From sequence record NC_073058.1: DNA of 45,536 bases. One strand, 5' to 3'. The stretch is from Escherichia phage vB_EcoS_WFI. Below, one piece after another: positions 1 to 45,536 of the stretch. How positions within the stretch are numbered: the first letter of the stretch is position 1; every line of letters starts with the position of its first letter. A program made the position numbers and the translations under genes. Below the pieces are notes generated by a model that saw only the letters and a list, made by a program, of their open reading frames with translations, did not search any database and was not told the DNA's origin.

Positions 1-32
1 CAGCAGATAGCGATCAACTTTTTCATACGCAT
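1..32 (-). CDS. 5' end of a leftward ORF running off the window start (MRMKKLIAIC...)
   Basis: ATG at 30-32 on the minus strand, frame open to position 1; no convincing RBS; truncated by the window edge. Confidence 0.2.
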   Translation of the reverse strand, partial: MRMKKLIAIC

Positions 33-103
33 GATTAATATTGGTTGCATTCAGCCTGGCACCCTGCTAGATTGGTTGCACACCAACGAGAGGACCAAAC
101 AAA

Positions 104-274
104 ATGAAATTTCCAGTAACCATCAAAGACGGTAAATCAACTATCACCTTCACCAGCAACGACCAGGGCACCTATGAAAGCGGGGCGACTTGCATGTCTA
201 CCCTGGACGATGTGATGATTCGTGTTAATTCCGGTAAAGCCTCGATTGTTGACGACAACACTAAGAAGGACTGA
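104..274 (+). CDS. small hypothetical protein (56 aa)
   Basis: ATG at 104 preceded by GAGAGGA; stop TGA 272-274; lies 4 nt before the next ORF; two ATTGGTTGC motifs upstream. Confidence 0.45.
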   Translation: MKFPVTIKDGKSTITFTSNDQGTYESGATCMSTLDDVMIRVNSGKASIVDDNTKKD

Positions 275-277
275 ACA

Positions 278-583
278 ATGAGAGCATTAATCTGGAAATA
301 CTCACGGGCCATAGCGAAGCTGGACGAAGCGAAAAACACAAACGGCAACGTAGACTATGCGCGCCAGTTTGCGGCACGGGCACACCAACACATCATGAGT
401 GCGCTCGACGATATGGACGCCAGCATGGATGACCTGGGTCCGCTGCGTAAGGCTATCCATGAATACGCGCTGGCATTCTCCCGTGAGCGCCTGGCCTATC
501 GCTTCGGTATTGGCGATAAGGCAGTGACAAACGTTGCCCGGATTAAAGCCCAGCGTGAGCTATTCGCCCAGCTTGCGAAATAA
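278..583 (+). CDS. hypothetical protein (101 aa)
   Basis: ORF track; tight spacing with flanking genes. Confidence 0.55.
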   Translation: MRALIWKYSRAIAKLDEAKNTNGNVDYARQFAARAHQHIMSALDDMDASMDDLGPLRKAIHEYALAFSRERLAYRFGIGDKAVTNVARIKAQRELFAQLAK

Positions 584-592
584 GAGGCCAAA

Positions 593-862
593 ATGACCCG
601 TAGACGCGCAAAACAGCTTTCGTGGCATATCCCCCTGCATTGCATACGAATATGGGCTAAGAATGCGAATGAGGGCGATTCAGTGTTCTGGTGCTATCGC
701 GACGACGTTAAGCCGTTGACGCAGACTCGCTACTTGCACCAGTTCGCAGCACAACACGATTTCAGGGTGCGGACTTCCTTGCAACCAATGGGGATCCGTA
801 TTACATTACGCCGGAAGCCCGCCGTTGAGCGGGTAGGCAAACACTGGAGACTGAGCAAATGA
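593..862 (+). CDS. hypothetical protein (89 aa), member of a tandem paralog set
   Basis: RBS AAGAGG before ATG 593; C-terminus ERVGKHWRLSK resembles C-terminus of the next gene; ATGA overlap with next gene. Confidence 0.5.
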   Translation: MTRRRAKQLSWHIPLHCIRIWAKNANEGDSVFWCYRDDVKPLTQTRYLHQFAAQHDFRVRTSLQPMGIRITLRRKPAVERVGKHWRLSK

Positions 863-1203
863 TTCGAGTAACCGCACGCCACGAACAATCGGGGGCCACT
901 TACGATGTAATCGACGTTCGCGGCGCGTTCGTCATCTTCGGACGGGGTGACGACCGGCTGGCGCTGCCGATCGGTATGCTGAGCACATACGACTATTTCA
1001 AGCATAACGTCCGGTGTGGCGATGTGCTGCGCGATAAGCGCACCGGTGAGCTATGGACGGTGGCGAGTATTTGGGTGAAAGATAAACGGCAGCACACGTT
1101 ATTGCTCGCCCGCCCGGATTGCAAACAGCAAACTATTAACACTATTGGCCTGGTGGACTACACCCGCGTAGGCCGTAACGCTACCTGGAGACTGAGAAAA
1201 TGA
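859..1203 (+). CDS. hypothetical protein (114 aa), tandem paralog
   Basis: Shares GDVLRD-R-G-LW-V and GL-Y-RVGR motifs with the 1200..1832 product; ATGA start/stop overlaps on both sides. Confidence 0.6.
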   Translation: MIRVTARHEQSGATYDVIDVRGAFVIFGRGDDRLALPIGMLSTYDYFKHNVRCGDVLRDKRTGELWTVASIWVKDKRQHTLLLARPDCKQQTINTIGLVDYTRVGRNATWRLRK

Positions 1204-1832
1204 AATTACTATTCCGCCGTAACTCAGATGGCTATATCCTGAAGCCGATCCAGACCTTATCGAACTGGGTACGCCTCCACCACGTTGCAAGCGATAAAGT
1301 CTGGTGGGCGACTAAGGCAAAGCTGCCGGAGTACTACGAAATCCTCACACACGATATCGAGCGCGGCGATGTGCTGCGGGATATTCGCGACGGGCAATTG
1401 TGGGTCGTGGAATACACCTACCGGCACGGCCTGCGTATGACGTCCCGCAAGGATGGCGTAGCGGGCAACATGGTCAAGGGCATGACGTACTTCGGGCTAA
1501 TCAACTACGAACGAGTGGGCCGCAAGTACAGCAAGCGTGACCGCCAGCCACATGAGCGAGCGAACGCCATAGCTGACGTCGTCAACCGCGTAACGCGTGA
1601 GGTGGCGCAGAAGATGAGCGTTGAGTTCCGCAAATCCCAGCCAGCGTATGCGACCTACGACGCCCGCCAGGTGCAGGCCAGACTTAACAAGGCCACGCAT
1701 GAGATAATTAATCACGTTGATGCCGTGACGAATGCGCAGCGCATGGCCCGCGAATACGGCGTAGGATTCATCCGTGTCGAGCAAGACGGCAGCATGTCCG
1801 CTATAGACCCGCGCTCGGTAATACTGAAATGA
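1200..1832 (+). CDS. hypothetical protein (210 aa), N-terminal domain paralogous to 859..1203
   Basis: Motifs ERGDVLRDIRDGQLWVV and GLINYERVGRK align with the upstream gene; translationally coupled. Confidence 0.6.
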   Translation: MKLLFRRNSDGYILKPIQTLSNWVRLHHVASDKVWWATKAKLPEYYEILTHDIERGDVLRDIRDGQLWVVEYTYRHGLRMTSRKDGVAGNMVKGMTYFGLINYERVGRKYSKRDRQPHERANAIADVVNRVTREVAQKMSVEFRKSQPAYATYDARQVQARLNKATHEIINHVDAVTNAQRMAREYGVGFIRVEQDGSMSAIDPRSVILK

Positions 1833-1953
1833 GCGCGACTATCCGTGATATGCTTATGCATAACCGCTTTGAGATAGGCGGGCGAGTATTCTGCAATTAC
1901 TTCGTGGCGCGTGCTTGGGCGCGCCATATCGGAAAACCAGTAGGGGCAATACG

Positions 1954-2241
1954 ATGCTATACGATTTGATATTTTGGTTTGGTTTGGGGTGTGCGTCACT
2001 CTTTGTTGTGGTGCTGGCGCTGTTGGTATGGCTATTCCTGGTATGGCCCGCGGTGGAAGCAGCCAGCATTACCCGCATGACGTTCAAGATATACAAGCGC
2101 CGCGGCATATCGGAACACCCGACCAGGTTGCGCATGTGGTGGCTTTGGTATCTGGATATGATTGGCGGTCGAAGGTTTGAGGCCATCCGGTCATCCGGGT
2201 GGGAATGGAAAGGCGTCGGCAAGTGGTCCATTTTCGATTAA
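1954..2241 (+). CDS. small membrane protein (95 aa)
   Basis: ATG 1954 with GGGG 8 nt upstream; hydrophobic N-terminal segments (LIFWFGLGCASLFVVVLALLVWLFLVW); sits just before the lysis cassette. Confidence 0.45.
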   Translation: MLYDLIFWFGLGCASLFVVVLALLVWLFLVWPAVEAASITRMTFKIYKRRGISEHPTRLRMWWLWYLDMIGGRRFEAIRSSGWEWKGVGKWSIFD

Positions 2242-2260
2242 ATATGCAGTCGTGATATAG

Positions 2261-2293
2261 TCCCAGTGAGCTAAAACTTACTGGGACTTTTTT
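2261..2293 (+). terminator. stem-loop plus T-run abutting the holin start codon
   Basis: TCCCAGTGAG/CTTACTGGGA stem followed by CTTTTTT, then ATG at 2294. Confidence 0.45.
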
Positions 2294-16828: not shown

Positions 16829-17139
16829 CGGGACAAAACGGGACGTCCCGCTTTGTCCCGTTTTGCAAAACTGCATACTTACTCACTTTCATTGCATAAA
16901 CTCAAAGCGGGACGAGCGGGACGTCCCGATCCGTCCCGCCCCCTAAATGTGCATACCTATTCAGATTTCGTGCATAAAACAAACGGGACAGAAAGCGGGA
17001 CAAACATGGGGCGGGACAAAGCGGGACAGCACCCCGTCCCCGTCAGTGCTGCCGCGGGTTTCAGCCGATCGGGACAAGCGGGACAAACCCCAGTCTTTCA
17101 GACTAGACGGGGGTCAATGGCCCCCCTCGTCTGAGACTG
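16829..17139. repeat. iteron array (about 10 direct and 5 inverted CGGGACA units) ending in a ~50-nt imperfect palindrome; homologous to 45264-45421
   Basis: Visible repeats GCGGGACAA / GTCCCGC; palindrome CAGTCTTTCAGACTAGACGGGGGTCAATGGCCCCCCTCGTCTGAGACTG at 17091-17139; conserved block GGGGCGGGACAARGCGGGACAGCACCCC shared with the second copy. Confidence 0.7.
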
Positions 17140-17207
17140 AATAAGGTTTGTTTGAAATTCGCTGATACAATGTCAATCGGCAACTGCATAAAAAAGGGGA
17201 CTGCATA

Positions 17208-19853
17208 ATGGCAGATCAAGCAGCAGGCATCACGCTAAAGGCGGATGTTGCACAAATCAGAACGGCGAATACGGTGCTGGACTCATTCGCGCAGAAGTCC
17301 GAGAACACCGAAAACAAGGTTAAGAAATTAAACGACACACTCGGCAACACGAAAAAGGTGACGGGTGACGCCGCGGGCGGAATGGGGAAGCTGGCAACTG
17401 AATCGCAGCGCGCCGCAGATGGCATGACGAAGCAGGAGCGACTTGCCAACCGCTTAGGCATGTCAACCAAAAACCTCGGCTTTGCCTCACGTAACGCCGC
17501 ATTTCAGTTACAAGATATTGCGGTCACGCTAGAGATGGGTATGCCGGTGCACCGCGTCATGATTCAGCAGCTACCGCAGTTAACCGGGGCATTCGGAGGA
17601 CTGGGTAATACGCTGCGTTATGTTGCTGGCTTTCTCGGTCCGGTAGGGATCGGCCTTGCTGCGGTAACGGCGACGTTAGGTGTAGGCGTGGCGATTACGT
17701 CCCGCGCAGAAAACCAGGTAGCGGCGCTGAATAAGACGCTGGCGCTATCCGGTAATATCTCTGGCCTCACCGCTAACCAGATCCTGGTGCTGTCGGAGAA
17801 CGCCGAACGCATGGGCGGATCATTCAGCAAGACGCGTGACACAATTCAGGCACTGGCGGCAGCAGGTGTGAAAGCTGGTGCTGACTTTGGCGCGCTGGCG
17901 AAAGTGGTGAACGACTTCGCGAAGGTGTCTAATCAGCCGATCGCGGACGTGGTGGAGTCCATCTCCAAATTGTCCAACGACCCGGTGGGCGGATTGCGCG
18001 CACTGGCGGACAAGTATCACGTCGTTACCGAGGCGCAGGTCCAGCAGGTGCAATCCCTGGTGACGACGGGCCGCGAAACCGAAGCGGTGGCGTTGGCTAA
18101 CAAAACAGCCGCGGCGTCGTTCACCAGCATGACCAACGAGATCAAGTCCAACATGGGTACGCTTGAGCGGTCAATGAACGTCGTCACATCGGCAGCCAAA
18201 TCTATGTGGGATGCCATCCTGGATGTGGGCCGCGCGCAGTCCTCGAATGAGTCCGAGATGAAAGCGCGTGAATCCTTGCAGCGCATGACAACGGCCTACT
18301 ATGCCGAGATGAAAGCGGTAAACGCTGCCGGTGGGGTAATGACCGAGGCGCAGAAAGCACGAATTAACATGCTTTATAGCGAACTGGTCGCCCAGGAGAA
18401 AGTAGTAGCGTCACTCACCCTGCGCAACCGTGCTGAGCGTGACAACGCAAGCGCCGCGGACAAATCAGCGAAGGCGAACGAGGAGGCCAACCGCACCGCC
18501 CGCGACCGCGCCGCGTTCGAGAAGGAATTTGCCACCAACGCGCAGAAGCGCGCCGACGAGATCGCCCGCCTCAATTTGCTGAATAAGCGCGGTGTGATTA
18601 ACGAGAAAGAACTAGCCGAGGCGGTGAAGCAGGTCAACGAGCGCTACAAAGACCCCGCACCGAAGAAGGCGGCGGCTATTCGCGTGGATGCTGGTGTCAA
18701 AATGCTGGAGGTCGCACGGAGCGAACTGGCGCAGCTTAAGGAGTCCGGCAAGCAGATCGAGGCCAATGCGACAACGCAGACCCGCACGCAGCGCGCACAG
18801 GCCGCGTTGAATAAGCTGGTGGCGGATAATGAGCAGATGGTCACAGCAAGCAAGGAGCGCACACTAACGGCAGCAGAAAAGCAGCAGATGGCGGAGTTCG
18901 AGGCGGTTAAAGCAGTACGCGAGCAGATCGTCGAAGAAGCCAAGTTGCTGGACGCGAAAGAGAAGCAGATCAAGGCACACGCCCAGGTCGAGGCATTCAT
19001 CAAGAACCAGAACGCTGAGCTAAGGGCCACCGCTGCGGGCTATGCGCTTTCCACTCGCGAAGCGGCTAACCTGCGCGAAGAATTACAGCTAATTGACCGC
19101 CTTCAGCGTGTCGGCGCTAACGATACTGATATTGACAACGCGGTGTCTAAGCTGCGCGAAGTGCAGGAAGCACAGACCGGTGCTAACGCCTCGTTGTGGG
19201 ATGGCTTCAGCCGCGGGCTTAAGGATAGCGTGGATGAAATGGGTAACGGCTACACGCAGATGACGTCACTCACAAAATTCACGTTCGGCGCTATGCAGGA
19301 CACGATGAACAAGTTTTTCGAGACGGGCAAGCTGAGCGCGAAGGATATGGTTAAGTCCATCCTGAGCGAATTAATCAAGCTGGCTACCTCGCAGGCGTTC
19401 AAATCCGTCGTTAGCGCTTTCGGCGGTGACGGCGGCAAAAACGGATTGTTCGGCGCTATCTTCTCCGGCCTCACTAAGAACGCAGACGGCGGAGCGTACG
19501 CAGGAGGCAACCTCGCGGCCTATTCGGGGCAAGTGGTAAGCCAGCCTACCTTTTTCAGCTATGGCGTCCAGGCGTTCGCGAAGGGCGCAGGATTGATGGG
19601 TGAGGCTGGACCCGAGGCAATCATGCCACTGAAGCGCGGGCCGGATGGGAAACTGGGCGTTGCCGCTGCCGGTGTTGGTGGGGGTGGGATGATTGTAACG
19701 ACCAACGTGAACATGGGGACCGGTAAAACGGACACCAGTGTGAGCGGACCGGACCCACGCACCGCGCAGGCGTTCGGCAAGCAAATCACCGAGTCGGTCA
19801 AGGCTGAGATCGTGAAAGCGACGAAACCGGGTGGAGTACTTTACAAACGATGA
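17208..19853 (+). CDS. tail tape measure protein
   Basis: 881 aa, Ala/Gln/Lys-rich helical protein directly after G/GT; C-terminal Gly-rich region. Confidence 0.85.
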   Translation: MADQAAGITLKADVAQIRTANTVLDSFAQKSENTENKVKKLNDTLGNTKKVTGDAAGGMGKLATESQRAADGMTKQERLANRLGMSTKNLGFASRNAAFQLQDIAVTLEMGMPVHRVMIQQLPQLTGAFGGLGNTLRYVAGFLGPVGIGLAAVTATLGVGVAITSRAENQVAALNKTLALSGNISGLTANQILVLSENAERMGGSFSKTRDTIQALAAAGVKAGADFGALAKVVNDFAKVSNQPIADVVESISKLSNDPVGGLRALADKYHVVTEAQVQQVQSLVTTGRETEAVALANKTAAASFTSMTNEIKSNMGTLERSMNVVTSAAKSMWDAILDVGRAQSSNESEMKARESLQRMTTAYYAEMKAVNAAGGVMTEAQKARINMLYSELVAQEKVVASLTLRNRAERDNASAADKSAKANEEANRTARDRAAFEKEFATNAQKRADEIARLNLLNKRGVINEKELAEAVKQVNERYKDPAPKKAAAIRVDAGVKMLEVARSELAQLKESGKQIEANATTQTRTQRAQAALNKLVADNEQMVTASKERTLTAAEKQQMAEFEAVKAVREQIVEEAKLLDAKEKQIKAHAQVEAFIKNQNAELRATAAGYALSTREAANLREELQLIDRLQRVGANDTDIDNAVSKLREVQEAQTGANASLWDGFSRGLKDSVDEMGNGYTQMTSLTKFTFGAMQDTMNKFFETGKLSAKDMVKSILSELIKLATSQAFKSVVSAFGGDGGKNGLFGAIFSGLTKNADGGAYAGGNLAAYSGQVVSQPTFFSYGVQAFAKGAGLMGEAGPEAIMPLKRGPDGKLGVAAAGVGGGGMIVTTNVNMGTGKTDTSVSGPDPRTAQAFGKQITESVKAEIVKATKPGGVLYKR

Positions 19854-32488: not shown

Positions 32489-32568
32489 CGTAATGTCTCC
32501 AGGTATTAAAAAGGGCGTCCAACCGGACACCCTTAAGATAATGCAACCAATCTAATTACGCAACCAAT

Positions 32569-35955: not shown

Positions 35956-38247
35956 TTACTTCCTGTACCGATACATAATGTCGCCTTCGGCGGCAAGTGG
36001 GAAACCTTTCGCCCATATAGGCAGGTCACACATCAGCGCGCAAAGCTCCTCGGTCGTGTAATCGTCGGTGTCCGGCACTTCGGTGATCAATTCATCGTGC
36101 ACTGACAGGACGATTTCATAGCCCGCAGCTTCAACACCAGGCATGGACCATGCGAGAATATCGCGGCACAACGCCTGTACGATGTTCTCCGTAAGTTTGC
36201 CGCCGTAGGTGTACTGGAATCCCCACTGGCGCGTCGTCTGATTCTCGCCCTGGTATTTGATGCGGGTACTGGTGCGCTTCTTGCCGGTGTCTTCGTCAAT
36301 CTCGGTAGTGACAGACAGCGCGATTCCGGGGTAGCTCATGATTCGCCCTGACGGCAACTCAACCTTCAGCCACCAGCCCGCGGCGTTCGGGTCGTCGCGT
36401 TCCTCGTCAAAGGTGGGGTCGTGCTTCGCCTTCGTGCGCACAATCTTGAGCGCTTTCTTGCCATCCGGGCGAACGTTCGCGCCAGCCCAGTATGCCTTAC
36501 CTGGATTGCGTATCGCACATAACACCGCCTCCTCAAGCTCGGCCCAAAAGGCTACGGTCTTCGGGTGAGATTCACGCCACATACGTTTGATCGCGTCGCA
36601 GGTCAACCACACGTTTTTAGGCAGTATGTAAGTCGGGCGCTCGTCTTTCTTGCCGGGCTTCGGCGGGCGCTTCGCTTCGTTGATGCGGGCAAACTCATAA
36701 CCGCGTTTAGCCGCCGCCCAAATATGATCGGGGAATGTTCCCTTCATGACGTCAGCCATTGCGTACAGGTCGAGGCCCAGGTTTTTAGCAAACTGCAAGA
36801 ACGCCGCGACGCCGCCACCATAGCCCAGTCCCAATTCACACGCCTTACCAATCTGGCGTAGGTCTTTGCGGTTGGCTTTGATGTAGTCCGGGTCAAGGCC
36901 AAACATCTTACCGGCAGTTTCACAATAGATATCGCGTCCGGCCTTAAACACCATAAGCGCGGTTTTCTCGCCAGCGATCCAGGCAAGGCCACGCCCTTCC
37001 ACGTTGGAGTAGTCCGCTACAACAAACTTCTTGCCCTTAGCCGGGATAATGCACCCGCGAACGGTCGAGGCGGTTAGCTTCGATATGTCATACGCCCAGT
37101 GCGCGGTCCCGCGTAACAGGGAGTTGATGCCGTTGGTGAGCATGTGCGACCGTACCCAAAACGAGACGTCGCTCTCACCTTCGCGGCGCTTAATCTTCCC
37201 TTCGTGGTCATCACTGTACTCGCCACGTGCCAGGTTTTGAGGCTGAAAGCCTTTACCGGCCCAGCGTAGTGTGCGCTTTGCCCCACCATACTGAAGACAA
37301 CCACGGCGGCGACCATCGGCAGAAAGACCATTGACGAGCGGATTGTATTTAGTCGATGCCGTTGATGACGCGCCGAGGCGCATTTCAATAAGCACTTTGC
37401 CCTCGTCGGGGAAGTCTGGATCTTCCAGCAAGTCATTCAGCGTGGATTTCTGCGCGTTGTGAATGGTGAACGCCGGGGCAATATCACGCAGGATTGGCAG
37501 GAAGTCATTACCGGTCAGTTTACCGCCGAACAGTTCCCAGGCTTCTTCCTTCAATTCTTCTTTGTGCACCTGCACCGCCTTGATCGCGGCGTTCGCCAGG
37601 TCAACGTCCACATAGAAGCCACGGTCGTTAATCAACTGGTCGATACGCAGGATTTCATCTTCCTTCGGTGAGTTGCCCCAGTCCGGTATTCGCCAGTAGA
37701 CTTCACGCATTGCGATAATATCCAGCGCGGCATAGCGCAGGAATTTAGCCCATTCTTCAGGGTGAGTCTCGCGCGTGTAGCGGCGGATTTTGTAGGTCTT
37801 AGGGGTCGGCTTACAAAATCGCTTAATCAGCGCCTTGCCTGCCTTATCCTTCGCGTGCTCTGCGTCAACGCCCAGCACCTGGCATTGCATATCGAGGCCA
37901 CCCGGCAGCGCGTGACGAAAGGCCATAATCATCGTATCTTCGATCTGGCTTACCGGCAGGTCGATGCCCCACTTTTCACGGATAACCAGGCGGTCAAACA
38001 GGAGGCCGTTAGCCATCACTATTTTTGCTTTCTTGCGGGTTACCTGGCGTAGCGCCTTGCGCAGTTCACGCGGCATCGTGGGGGATTCAGTGGCGTCCCA
38101 TGTCTGCACGCGGCCCTCGTCGATGGCGTAGGTGCAAATCATAATCTCGGTGGATGGGTGTTCTGCATAGGCATACGCACCTGCTTTCTTCAGGTCCACC
38201 CCGCTATATGTCTCGGTGTCAAGAAACAGGCGTTCGAAGTCTTTCAT
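35956..38247 (-). CDS. DNA polymerase I (family A) with 3'-5' exonuclease domain
   Basis: Exo motif FLDTETYS; polymerase motifs RDIYCETAGKMFG, KACELGLGYGGG, LSVHDELITEV. Confidence 0.9.
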   Translation of the reverse strand: MKDFERLFLDTETYSGVDLKKAGAYAYAEHPSTEIMICTYAIDEGRVQTWDATESPTMPRELRKALRQVTRKKAKIVMANGLLFDRLVIREKWGIDLPVSQIEDTMIMAFRHALPGGLDMQCQVLGVDAEHAKDKAGKALIKRFCKPTPKTYKIRRYTRETHPEEWAKFLRYAALDIIAMREVYWRIPDWGNSPKEDEILRIDQLINDRGFYVDVDLANAAIKAVQVHKEELKEEAWELFGGKLTGNDFLPILRDIAPAFTIHNAQKSTLNDLLEDPDFPDEGKVLIEMRLGASSTASTKYNPLVNGLSADGRRRGCLQYGGAKRTLRWAGKGFQPQNLARGEYSDDHEGKIKRREGESDVSFWVRSHMLTNGINSLLRGTAHWAYDISKLTASTVRGCIIPAKGKKFVVADYSNVEGRGLAWIAGEKTALMVFKAGRDIYCETAGKMFGLDPDYIKANRKDLRQIGKACELGLGYGGGVAAFLQFAKNLGLDLYAMADVMKGTFPDHIWAAAKRGYEFARINEAKRPPKPGKKDERPTYILPKNVWLTCDAIKRMWRESHPKTVAFWAELEEAVLCAIRNPGKAYWAGANVRPDGKKALKIVRTKAKHDPTFDEERDDPNAAGWWLKVELPSGRIMSYPGIALSVTTEIDEDTGKKRTSTRIKYQGENQTTRQWGFQYTYGGKLTENIVQALCRDILAWSMPGVEAAGYEIVLSVHDELITEVPDTDDYTTEELCALMCDLPIWAKGFPLAAEGDIMYRYRK

Positions 38248-38414
38248 TGCTTTATCCTCACTACTGCGTCAGCGCTGCCGATCATGGAGAAGATACCATC
38301 CGACAAGGCAATCTCTTCGCCGTTGTTGCGAATCTCGGCAACGGTAAAATACTCGCCCAGCAATTTGGACCATACACGCATTCCGACTTTTACTTCACTG
38401 GCTTTAATACGCAT
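38244..38414 (-). CDS. small hypothetical protein (56 aa)
   Basis: RBS AGGA; stop overlaps the DNA polymerase ATG (ATGA). Confidence 0.35.
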   Translation of the reverse strand: MRIKASEVKVGMRVWSKLLGEYFTVAEIRNNGEEIALSDGIFSMIGSADAVVRIKQ

Positions 38415-42892: not shown

Positions 42893-45157
42893 ATGAGCTT
42901 AATTAAATTCGCAGTAACAAGACCCGCTAAAAAAGGCGAAAAAGCCAGGGCGGAAAACTTCGAGATGACCACTGATGAGTTTTTCGAATTTATCAATGAT
43001 GCGAAAGAAATCTCCTCGGTGCACATCAACAAGACTGAAGATAAAGCCGAGTATGCGCGCCGCAAGCGTAAGGCCGATGGCATCGTGGCCTATACCAATG
43101 ATGGGTTACGCCGCAAGACCAGTGCGGTCGACCGCTCGATCCTGTTCTTCGATATTGACCGCACCGACACCCGCACATTACGCCGCTGCCGTAAAGCGTT
43201 CACCGACGCTGGTCTGGAGCATGTATTCCACACCACGACCGGCGACCGTCACCCACTGAAAGGCGGCACACGTTGCGCCCGTTTCCTGGTGCTCACTGAC
43301 AAGCCTGTACCGGCTGAAGACCTGGGCCGCGTCCAGTATGCATTGTTAGACCAACTGGGCTTGTCAGATGTGGACTTCGACGATTGTACAAAAGACACAA
43401 ACCGCCTTATGTACCTGCCTCACCAGCAGTCTGTCATAAAGTGCCACTACGGCAAGCGCGCCCGTGTCCGTCGTCTGCTTCGCCTGGCGGATAAGCTGGG
43501 AGTGGAGAAAGAGGAAGTGCGCCGCGAACTGACCCAGGGCGACGACGGCGTGGCGGACGGGATTCTGGATTGGTGCTTCCAGGCTGGCTTTGAACCACTG
43601 TCATCCGGTCGCGGTTATGAAGTGCCTTGCCCGAACGAGCACCTGCATAGCGGCGGCGGGTCGACGGCTATCATGGTTAAGGATGGCGAGATCCGTTTCA
43701 AGTGTATGCACACCGGCAACGAATGCTGTTCCGAACTGAATAAACACCAGCACCTGGCGTTACGTCTGATTGGTATCCCGGACCACTTGAACGTCGAGCC
43801 ACACAACATGTCACGCAAGCAAATCGCCGCAATCCTTCCGGGACTGGACGACGAGGAAGTGGAATCGTGCTATGAACATATTGTTGATGCGGTCGGAGAC
43901 GGCGACGAGTACGGCGAATGCACCGACGCTGACCTGGACAACGAGCCGGTCGCTCTGTTCAGTAAGCACGACCCGATTATCGAAGGCCTGGTCAACTTCA
44001 AATCTACCTGGTATATGGCGGGTGAGTCGAACATTGGTAAGTCGTTCTACGTGCTGGGCCAGATGGGCGCTGTTGCCGCGGGGATTCCGTTCGGTGGCGC
44101 GAAGGTCGTCCAGTCGCATTGCTTCTATTTCGATGCGGAAGGTGGCGAAGCCTCCAACCAGCGTAAGGAAGCATTGCAGATTAAATACGAGCACGACCTC
44201 GACAAGCTGCACATTATCGACCTGCAATCACGCGGCTGGGATATTACCAGCAAGTCAGGCTTGCGCGAGGTTATCAGCTTTATCAACCGCACCGCTAACG
44301 GGGAGCCGGTTGGCCTGGTGGCCTTCGACTCACTCAACCAGACTGTAGCGCTGCGGTCCGCTGATGCCAAACCGTTCGACGAGAACAACGCAAGCGATAT
44401 GGGTGAAGTGGTCAAAGCGCTGAAGTCCATTGCGGAAAATACAGGCGGCAGTGCGGGCGTCATCCATCACCCGGCTAAGGGTGCAAACGGCAGCAGATCC
44501 CCACGCGGGTCCGGCGCGCTTCATGGTGCTGTCGATTCTGCGTTCTTCCTGGAACAGCCGGACGATAATCAGCCAGGCCAACTCAACCTGTATCACGAAA
44601 AATCCCGTAACGGCATCAAGCAAGCGCCGCGTGGCTTCGTCCTGCTCAAGTGCAAAGTTAAGGTGGATCTCCGTAAGTCTGATGCGTTCGAAGCCCACCA
44701 GTCCACCAGCACCGGGCCAGACTTCGGCGATGTGGTTGCCGGTTGGGACGTCAAGCCAATTGCATCCACGCCACGCGACGAGACTCTCTACCTCGTACCG
44801 GTCGCCCTGGCACCGTTCGCTATCGAACAGGCTAAGGCAGCAGGCAAGGCCGCAGTTAAGGAAGAGAACACCGCCGGACCGCGCAACGAGAAAGAGAAGG
44901 TGCTTTATGCGGCACTGGAAAAACTGATGGAAGATAACCCGGACCATACTGGATTCAGTAAATCGGCAATTGTCCGCCAGGCTGGACTTGCGAAAGGTGG
45001 CACATCGACGAAGGCAATTGACGATATGGTGGAGCGCGGCGTGCTCGGGTTTTATACAGATCCACACACCGGGGCCATCTATGGGTCGTCGAATCTGGTC
45101 ATCAAATCGGATATACCCATCACGCTTTCAGCGACCGATGATGACTTAAAAGATTAA
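42893..45157 (+). CDS. primase/helicase fusion (primase-polymerase-like N-domain plus RepA-like RecA-fold ATPase)
   Basis: N-terminal ILFFDIDRTD and HVFHTTTGDRHP; C-terminal Walker A GESNIGKS and motifs VAFDSLNQ, VIHHPAKG. Confidence 0.6.
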   Translation: MSLIKFAVTRPAKKGEKARAENFEMTTDEFFEFINDAKEISSVHINKTEDKAEYARRKRKADGIVAYTNDGLRRKTSAVDRSILFFDIDRTDTRTLRRCRKAFTDAGLEHVFHTTTGDRHPLKGGTRCARFLVLTDKPVPAEDLGRVQYALLDQLGLSDVDFDDCTKDTNRLMYLPHQQSVIKCHYGKRARVRRLLRLADKLGVEKEEVRRELTQGDDGVADGILDWCFQAGFEPLSSGRGYEVPCPNEHLHSGGGSTAIMVKDGEIRFKCMHTGNECCSELNKHQHLALRLIGIPDHLNVEPHNMSRKQIAAILPGLDDEEVESCYEHIVDAVGDGDEYGECTDADLDNEPVALFSKHDPIIEGLVNFKSTWYMAGESNIGKSFYVLGQMGAVAAGIPFGGAKVVQSHCFYFDAEGGEASNQRKEALQIKYEHDLDKLHIIDLQSRGWDITSKSGLREVISFINRTANGEPVGLVAFDSLNQTVALRSADAKPFDENNASDMGEVVKALKSIAENTGGSAGVIHHPAKGANGSRSPRGSGALHGAVDSAFFLEQPDDNQPGQLNLYHEKSRNGIKQAPRGFVLLKCKVKVDLRKSDAFEAHQSTSTGPDFGDVVAGWDVKPIASTPRDETLYLVPVALAPFAIEQAKAAGKAAVKEENTAGPRNEKEKVLYAALEKLMEDNPDHTGFSKSAIVRQAGLAKGGTSTKAIDDMVERGVLGFYTDPHTGAIYGSSNLVIKSDIPITLSATDDDLKD

Positions 45158-45263
45158 ATTTTGCGCGCATTGGTTGCCATTTTGAGTGTTTTTAGCTGGT
45201 CGCATTGGTTGCCGTGTAGTGTGAATATAGTGAATAGTTATGCATTTTTATTGCATAAAGTAA

Positions 45264-45421
45264 GCGGGACAAAAAGCGGGACAGACAGGGGGCGGGACAA
45301 GGCGGGACAGCACCCCCGTCCCGCCCCGGATTACGCGGCTTGCGGGGGAGCGGGACAGGCGGGACAACTCCCAGTCTTTCAGACTAGACGGGGGTCAGTT
45401 GGCCCCCCTCGTCTGAGACTG
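45264..45421. repeat. iteron array plus ~50-nt imperfect palindrome, second copy of the 16829-17139 element
   Basis: GCGGGACA units; palindrome CAGTCTTTCAGACTAGACGGGGGTCAGTTGGCCCCCCTCGTCTGAGACTG at 45372-45420; flanking TGCATAA repeats. Confidence 0.7.
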
Positions 45422-45536
45422 CATAAAATCCTGGATTGCATAATGTACGGCAGTATGATGCGAATTGCGGTCGTTGATGAACTAGGCAACCAATGCGAGT
45501 TGTATTATGGTGAGTGAAAAATGCAGTTTGCAGTTA

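Follow-up and report, generated by a model that had tools for sequence, protein, structure and literature searches.

The window analysed here is the whole 45,536-nucleotide (nt) record of Escherichia phage vB_EcoS_WFI (NC_073058.1), a complete Dhillonvirus (HK578-like siphophage) genome, with positions counted from its first letter. Near its start lie three overlapping open reading frames (ORFs), ORF1, ORF2 and ORF3, which an earlier note on this DNA had described as translationally coupled tandem paralogs. The three frames (89, 114 and 210 amino acids, aa) are present as described, but judged from alignments and structural models only ORF2 and ORF3 are paralogs, and ORF1 is an unrelated gene conserved across the genus. 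We consider it probable that the unrelated ORF1 and ORF3 belong to a small operon with a swap-prone slot between them, that the cassettes occupying this slot end in a short linker, and that ORF2 is a rare occupant copied from the N-terminal domain of ORF3. The features on which this reading depends are as follows.

593..862, + strand: ORF1, 89 aa, isoelectric point (pI) 11.3; corresponds to HK578 gp50 and Sodalis phage SO-1 gp51 (phrog_12533); unrelated to ORF2 and ORF3.
845..862, + strand: linker copy 1, TGGAGACTGAGCAAATGA; contains the Shine-Dalgarno site (GGAG), a spacer of 9 nt and the ATGA in which stop and start overlap.
859..1203, + strand: ORF2, 114 aa, pI 10.0; rare optional cassette, by alignment a diverged copy of the ORF3 N-terminal beta domain without the C-terminal domain.
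1018..1036, + strand: GDVLRD-coding repeat, ORF2 copy, GGCGATGTGCTGCGCGATA; crossover site of a natural ORF2/ORF3 chimera (contig L103).
1186..1203, + strand: linker copy 2, TGGAGACTGAGAAAATGA; ORF2/ORF3 junction.
1200..1832, + strand: ORF3, 210 aa; HK578 gp52 family, phrog_10243.
1200..1523, + strand: ORF3 N-terminal domain, aa 1-108; predicted all-beta and made of two small halves that resemble barrels; the core HDIERGDVLRD..G..W is invariant.
1365..1383, + strand: GDVLRD-coding repeat, ORF3 copy, GGCGATGTGCTGCGGGATA.
1524..1643, + strand: variable linker of ORF3, aa 109-148; expected to be helical or disordered (predicted local distance difference test, pLDDT, <55), often shorter in relatives (alignment indels).
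1644..1832, + strand: ORF3 C-terminal domain, aa 149-210; predicted long helix and beta hairpin, YGVGFIRV..DGSM..IDPRSV, phrog_27442 at E 3.6e-20.

The relationship between ORF2 and ORF3 was apparent by every sequence comparison used. Residues 44-114 of ORF2 aligned with residues 46-116 of ORF3 at 33% identity over 75 columns (BLASTP E 1e-9), hhalign recovered the pair with E 2.2e-9 and a probability of 96%, and the Smith-Waterman score of 92 compared with 28.5 ± 4.7 for shuffled sequences (z 13.6; reached in 0/2000 shuffles). The motifs GDVLRD-R-G-LW-V and GL-Y-RVGR are common to both proteins, and ORF2 is about 30-39% identical to the N-terminal beta domain of ORF3. ORF2 is also colinear with the N-domain of the "type II" ORF3 allele of phage Envy (ORF2 residues 2-107, Envy residues 1-104, z 13.6). 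ORF2 ends in YTRVGRN like this allele (FTRVGRN in SECphi4, YARVGRN in locus L067) and then passes into the linker. Because ORF2 is colinear with an Envy-type N-domain and stops at this strand before the linker, it is, as far as alignment can tell, an old and diverged copy of the N-domain alone, cut at the domain boundary just past the RVGRN strand and attached to the linker, with no recent duplication in place.

Other ORF3 genes show rearrangement at the same place: in divergent alleles (Envy, L067, SECphi4, EC115) the N- and C-terminal domains have been reassorted near the RVGR(K/N) strand. The C-terminal domain is present in 156 phage records and also occurs elsewhere as a stand-alone small protein; phage Maverick has its ORF3 gene divided into two. 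Gene conversion is not needed to account for the 19-nt identity between the GDVLRD-coding repeats of ORF2 and ORF3, as GAT GTG CTG CG is found in all ORF3 alleles, even those only 40% identical; these are commonly used codons in E. coli. An internal duplication relating the two halves of the ORF3 N-domain was likewise rejected, the observed similarity being matched in 416/2000 shuffles.

The junctions between the three genes share a repeated element. ATGA stop/start overlaps are located at 859-862 and 1200-1203, as the earlier note had reported for each junction, and an additional one at 1829-1832 leads into a fourth ORF of 46 aa. At the first two junctions a GGAG sequence (846-849 and 1187-1190) lies 9 nt 5′ of the ATG, within the upstream coding region. 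The near-identity of the ORF1 and ORF2 3′ ends proved real, with its limits slightly shifted: the 18-mers TGGAGACTGAGCAAATGA and TGGAGACTGAGAAAATGA differ by one mismatch and begin at 845 and 1186 rather than 843 and 1184, or extend to 19 nt if the C at 844/1185 is included. The 17-mer linker pattern occurs only twice in the window, against a chance expectation of 0.02. The linker thus combines a Shine-Dalgarno site with the stop/start overlap for the next gene, an arrangement that fits the proposed translational coupling. RNA structure hiding the Shine-Dalgarno site was found at neither junction 1 nor junction 2 (z -0.6 and +1.5); the ORF3 initiation region is unstructured (z +1.5).

This element is not confined to ORF1 and ORF2. 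All cassettes seen between ORF1 and ORF3 carry at their 3′ end a copy or variant of the linker of about 17 nt (GGAGACTGAGCAAATGA; GGAGACTGAGCAA(A)TGA), followed by the invariant ORF3 start ATGAAATTACTATTC. It is translated as WRLSK* in ORF1, ORF2 and a 50-aa cassette (the ORF2 tail reading WRLRK), and in an acidic cassette, where the linker has a 1-nt deletion, as EETEQ*. Since the linker is read in different frames, its conservation must therefore lie at the nucleotide level. Between cassette types its variants differ by 1-3 nt or by a 1-nt deletion, and at the end of ORF1 it is kept in all relatives examined. That slot cassettes end in a linker copy explains both the 18-mer repeat and why ORF2 has a tail (WRLRK) like that of ORF1. 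A scan of viral contigs for the linker yielded matches outside Dhillonvirus that were mostly attributable to chance.

ORF1 and ORF3 are conserved genus-wide, and the junction between them holds 0 to 3 small cassettes depending on the phage. In the empty state (L011, L014) ORF1 is joined straight to ORF3 through TGGAGACTGAGCAAATGA. An acidic ORF of 43-50 aa (pI 4.1) occupies the slot in L002-4, L006, L007, L010, L012, SECphi4 and Envy, a basic 50-aa ORF in L005, and two or three stacked cassettes in L008, L009 and L067. ORF2 is found in the slot of the window and of L001, L013, L016 and L017 (its carriers being the window, WF5505, 22664B1, 101114B2, CHD2B1 and one IMG/VR contig). In every slot state seen, the empty one included, the cassette boundaries match the linkers exactly. 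Across the phage collection the acidic cassette accounted for 105 records and the 50-aa cassette for 25; a cassette of 63 aa was present in 3, and ORF2 in 5 that represent 4 phages. Among 5.8 billion proteins ORF2 formed only 5 clusters. This rarity, together with the optional and variable content of the slot, fits an accessory role.

The acidic cassette, the commonest occupant (105 phage records; slots compared in loci L002-L012, L018, L099 and L100), carries the conserved motif GIATVCDGD.KT..EIEETEQ. None of the loci examined had both this cassette and ORF2.

We propose that the linker would act in two ways: it would keep the downstream gene translationally coupled whatever the slot contains, and it would offer a short homology for the gain, loss and stacking of cassettes. 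Three points weigh against our reading of the locus as a whole. The part played by the linker in recombination is read from its distribution only, selection for the Shine-Dalgarno and ATGA functions alone could maintain much of its sequence, and the first 43 residues of ORF2 resemble the first half of the ORF3 domain only weakly (p about 0.01-0.03).

The second of these points can be developed into an alternative, in which nothing more than selection, convergent or retained, for an efficient ribosome-binding site with a stop/start overlap lies behind the linker repeat; the linker would then have no part in exchange, and the cassettes would move by illegitimate recombination elsewhere. The translational role of GGAG and ATGA is obvious, the initiation region of ORF3 is free of structure as noted above, and the linkers of different cassette types show small differences. 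Yet the 9-nt spacer ACTGAGCAA is conserved over cassette types and reading frames, with no known translational requirement for it, and the coincidence of cassette boundaries with linkers extends even to the empty slot. Short repeats in the same region also demonstrably support natural deletion: the Logan contig L103, 99.5% identical to window 267-1036, has lost 347 bp exactly between two 14-bp GGCGATGTGCTGCG repeats, which creates a 190-aa chimera of the ORF2 N-terminal and ORF3 C-terminal parts. For these reasons we hold this alternative to be rather unlikely, if still a serious competitor, and favour a linker that serves both coupling and exchange.

Deletion and fusion variants of this kind are common in metagenomes (L103 828-1400; proteins P0125, P0148, P0150, P0152, P0154 and P0134). 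Among them are the chimera of the ORF2 N-terminal and ORF3 C-terminal parts, a fusion of the acidic cassette with the C-domain of ORF3, and one in which the N-domain of ORF3 runs into the membrane protein encoded downstream.

ORF2 might instead be what an accident of duplication or recombination left behind, without function and heading for loss. Of about 150 sequenced Dhillonviruses only 4 carry it, it is without the C-terminal domain of ORF3, and in a close relative it has been deleted or fused. Against this, its reading frame is intact in all carriers, the core motif, the linker and the start context are kept, and the ratio of nonsynonymous to synonymous substitution rates (dN/dS) is 0.20 between two lineages separated by a dS of 0.27, the same value as for the conserved ORF1. 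Because dN/dS is 0.2 and equal to that of ORF1, ORF2 is, by this sequence measure, a working gene maintained by purifying selection, and we regard decay as very unlikely.

What the encoded proteins do can be approached mainly through their predicted folds. ORF1-3 are all basic (pI 10-11.3), and the ORF3 family is narrow, with 24 cluster representatives among 1.84 billion proteins. Searches of Pfam, NCBIfam, PADLOC and Protein Data Bank (PDB) sequences returned no match for these proteins; in PADLOC, which holds defence-system proteins, and NCBIfam nothing was found at E <=1 except one hit far below cut-off. AlphaFold models covered ORF1 and ORF3. In the ORF3 model, aa 1-108 form two small beta halves resembling barrels (pLDDT 78-90); they are followed by an indel-prone linker modelled with low confidence and by a C-terminal helix and hairpin. 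Our best guess is that the basic proteins ORF2 and ORF3 fold as small beta-barrels of Tudor/SH3-like type, which would bind nucleic acid or a host protein. ORF3 would probably oligomerise through its C-terminal helix-hairpin, and ORF2 would act as a monomer whose specificity has changed.

The earlier note had further suggested a host-takeover or anti-defence function for these genes, and this remains a guess. The SECphi4 accessions for the homologues of ORF1, the slot ORF and ORF3 and for the upstream gene are absent from the available part of the supplementary text of the SECphi4 escape-mutant study. Similarly, the ORF3 homologue is missing from the proteins given as detected in the accessible portion of the proteomics text for phage EE09 (CDS45-47 and EE09_46-48 go unmentioned; PMC10673088). 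A bolder form of our interpretation would make the linker a portable coupling-and-recombination module for plugging in, stacking and swapping accessory genes (acidic mimic-like proteins, mini beta barrels, ORF2), with ORF2 and ORF3 as basic double-barrel binders of host nucleic acid or RNA polymerase whose hypervariable surfaces (ORF3 21-50 and 71-100) reflect an arms race with host defences. We offer this extension as speculation and think it unlikely as a whole.

A specific version, in which ORF3 and ORF2 are takeover factors whose Tudor-like domains dock on the RNA polymerase beta subunit (as in CarD, Mfd and PcrA/UvrD) and the C-terminal helix of ORF3 mimics omega, is highly improbable. 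The omega match came from a PDB profile search at chance level (E 0.42-0.6); the NRFD motif behind it reads NHVD in this genome and is missing from type II alleles; and neither ORF3 nor any of 48 members of its family matched the CarD/Mfd, Tudor, KOW or Rpb6 families of Pfam, even with E allowed to reach 10. Mimicry of the omega subunit (RpoZ/Rpb6) was rejected on these grounds, and neither the Tudor structural neighbours nor the omega-like NRFD helix hold up as leads to RNA polymerase. Homology to the plant B3 domain was also set aside, as the match is local, the comparison was picked after the fact and none of the 48 members matches PF02362; as a pointer to DNA binding the local similarity is suggestive at most.

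In contrast to the ORF2-ORF3 pair, ORF1 showed no kinship with either neighbour. BLASTP gave E 1.4 against ORF2 and 27 against ORF3, hhalign gave E 0.05-0.07 with an alignment over the last 11 residues only, and shuffle z was <=1.1 with the tail included or removed. The predicted folds agree with this separation, ORF1 being modelled as alpha/beta and the N-terminal 108 residues of ORF3 as all-beta. Taken over all three ORFs, pairwise and profile similarity and fold place ORF1 outside any common family, and similarity unites ORF2 with ORF3. Of the three paralogs put forward in the earlier note, two therefore stand, and the degenerate copy of the shared motifs that it saw in ORF1 does not. The likeness of the ORF1 and ORF2 tails (WRLSK/WRLRK) arises because both are translations of the repeated nucleotide linker. 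That serial tandem duplication made all three genes, ORF1 having degenerated most, is scarcely credible: all three proteins are small and very basic and the ORF1 end ERVGKHWRLSK resembles TRVGRNATWRLRK of ORF2 and ERVGRK of ORF3, but the likeness goes no further than those last residues, the tail is encoded by a linker that also closes unrelated cassettes in another frame, and the predicted folds differ. The cassettes labelled B, D and A were tried as further paralogs of ORF1-3 and rejected (shuffle z <=1.4); ORF1 and cassette E gave a weak tail match in the shuffle comparison.

The surrounding genes define the setting of the slot. In relatives, the replicative helicase-primase gene lies 5′ of these genes, and the genes for two holins and the endolysin lie 3′ of them. 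The window carries its helicase-primase gene (42893..45157) on the same strand, directly upstream across the window ends. The remaining features of the region are listed here.

40..79, + strand: pair of ATTGGTTGC motifs (copies 40-48 and 71-79) 5′ of the first gene of the small operon; candidate regulatory element.
104..583, + strand: two small upstream genes, 56 aa and 101 aa; HK578 gp48/gp49 equivalents, the 101-aa protein matching phrog_9839 at E 1e-47.
1791..1854, + strand: predicted RNA hairpin over the start codon (1829) of the 46-aa ORF; -26.5 kcal/mol, z -3.2, 0/200 shuffles as stable.
1829..2241, + strand: last operon genes, the 46-aa ORF (1829..1969) and a membrane protein (1954..2241); HK578 gp53/gp54 equivalents.
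2259..2288, + strand: intrinsic-terminator-like hairpin and T run, a 12-bp stem then TTTTT; annotated as a terminator in WF5505, and precedes the holin/endolysin cassette.

A 480-nt intergenic region precedes the gene at 104, and the genes from 104 to 2241 are tightly packed. Because of this intergenic region and the terminator at 2259-2288, a small operon plausibly begins near position 100 and ends at about 2290, between the helicase-primase gene and the lysis cassette. The placement of the three ORFs at the start of a rightward gene block is thus partly right; in part it is an effect of where the record opens, given the helicase-primase gene upstream on the same strand and the cos match at 32.5 kb described below. 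No consensus sigma-70 promoter was found in a scan of the 40..79 region, and Rfam gave no match in the window. The hairpin at 1791-1854 would bury the 1829 start at the ORF3 stop, which is consistent with coupling of the 46-aa ORF to ORF3 termination, a classic layout for termination-dependent initiation. Further downstream, a 19-nt direct repeat with 89% identity, CGCGCCATATCGGAAAACC at 1920-1938 in the 46-aa ORF and CGCGGCATATCGGAACACC at 2101-2119 in the membrane-protein gene, is a possible deletion substrate.

The first base of the window is the same as in the GenBank record of vB_EcoS_WF5505. For the relative EE09, PhageTerm predicts a 10-nt 5′ cos end, ATCTTAAGGG (PMC10673088). In the window this sequence has a single copy, on the minus strand at 32530-32539, flanked by a ATTGGTTGC pair. 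Because the EE09 cos sequence is present once and at this site, position 1 is probably not a physical end and the physical genome ends probably lie near 32.5 kb. The WF5505 record (MK373790.1; L001/L015) repeats about 2 kb at 1-2026 and 45057-47082, corresponding to window 1-2026, so that ORF1-3 are annotated twice (WF5505_00003-5 and _00065-7). The WF5505 paper describes no terminal repeat. Since the repeat stops inside a gene and goes unreported in that paper, and since the cos sequence predicted for EE09 has its single site at 32.5 kb, the duplication is probably an assembly overlap rather than a true terminal repeat. The idea that the three genes lie in terminally repeated, first-injected DNA was dropped for the same reasons.

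Several further elements were noted elsewhere in the genome. The 9-mer ATTGGTTGC has 16 exact copies in the window, against an estimate of about 0.35 expected from length alone, with sites on both strands at 40, 71, 3798, 11231, 11245, 27341, 30639, 32543, 32560, 35501, 42353, 45169, 45204 and 45486. The copies are mostly close pairs in intergenic DNA, tens of bases 5′ of gene starts in the same orientation, and two share a longer hairpin-like context, ATTGGTTGCACACCAAC; the motif is probably a phage regulatory or operator sequence. A non-coding module of about 200 bp occurs twice with 83% identity, at 16950-17145, just 5′ of an 881-aa tape-measure-like ORF (17208..19853), and at 45230-45430, between the helicase-primase gene and the small-gene operon. 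It contains TGCATAAA, six GCGGGACA repeats and an inverted copy, then a long GC-rich hairpin, and may serve both sites as a regulatory module or be an element akin to an origin. Finally, a 56-aa protein encoded at 38247-38414 on the minus strand shares 96% identity with a SECphi4 protein labelled "56aa protein of unknown function"; in the preprint of Stokar-Avihail et al., phage escape mutants map upstream of the SECphi4 gene for this protein.

Taken together, these results correct the picture of the locus from three paralogs to two, and recast its striking nucleotide repeat as a linker borne by each slot cassette. If the linker mediates exchange, it would provide a simple rule by which small accessory genes are swapped while staying translationally coupled. 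The slot is also a compact place in a well-sampled coliphage genus, including BASEL and SECphi phages, in which to search for host-interaction and counter-defence genes. As knowledge of the proteins is limited to fold class, the practical value of ORF2, ORF3 and the slot genes lies in a candidate list for deletion and expression screens.

Comparison with known systems places the flanking genes in established families. ORF1 is a full-length member of phrog_12533, the family of HK578 gp50 and SO-1 gp51 (E 1.7e-58, profile 1-89/89); it is 92-100% identical in the loci compared, with database relatives down to about 78%, and the family is unrelated to ORF2 and ORF3. ORF3 is likewise a full-length member of phrog_10243, with HK578 gp52 and Sodalis phage SO-1 gp52 (E 7.3e-91, profile 1-184/184), and occupies the same position, between the gp50/51 and gp53 homologues and 5′ of the lysis cassette. 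ORF2 matches only the central part of this profile (44-109, E 2.5e-11) and is thus a partial, domain-level member, about 33% identical and without the linker and C-terminal domain, in keeping with a GenBank note in WF5505 that calls it "weakly similar to gp52 [Sodalis phage SO1]".

Likenesses to more distant proteins are slighter. The Tudor/SH3-like RNA polymerase binders (the PcrA/UvrD C-terminal domain, CarD/Mfd RID) have a fold that many functionally unrelated proteins also show, and gave no profile match. With the plant B3 pseudobarrel (PF02362) ORF3 shares a local LP..F......ERGD.VL...DGR.W.VEY motif and a basic character. The ORF3 profile matched a B3-repeat protein at E 3.6e-5, a HMMER score inflated by 11 repeats, and hhalign against the B3 repeats of P0166 gave a probability of 58% and E 1e-4 over 43 columns. 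The match covers less than half of the B3 domain, leaves the GW..F and the C-terminal strands without counterpart, and Pfam B3 misses ORF3.

The closest precedent for the slot itself lies in the mosaic genomes of tailed phages. Hendrix, Juhala, Clark and colleagues reportedly described short conserved boundary sequences at gene junctions of lambdoid phages, together with mosaic boundaries and "moron" or accessory cassettes. The Dhillonvirus slot resembles these in that alternative small genes occupy a single, exactly defined site flanked by conserved genes and the points of exchange fall at gene junctions, and in this sense the feature is real but ordinary, an instance of phage gene mosaicism. 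It differs in that the boundary here is the Shine-Dalgarno and stop/start signal itself, carried on each cassette, which allows coupled cassettes to be stacked in tandem.

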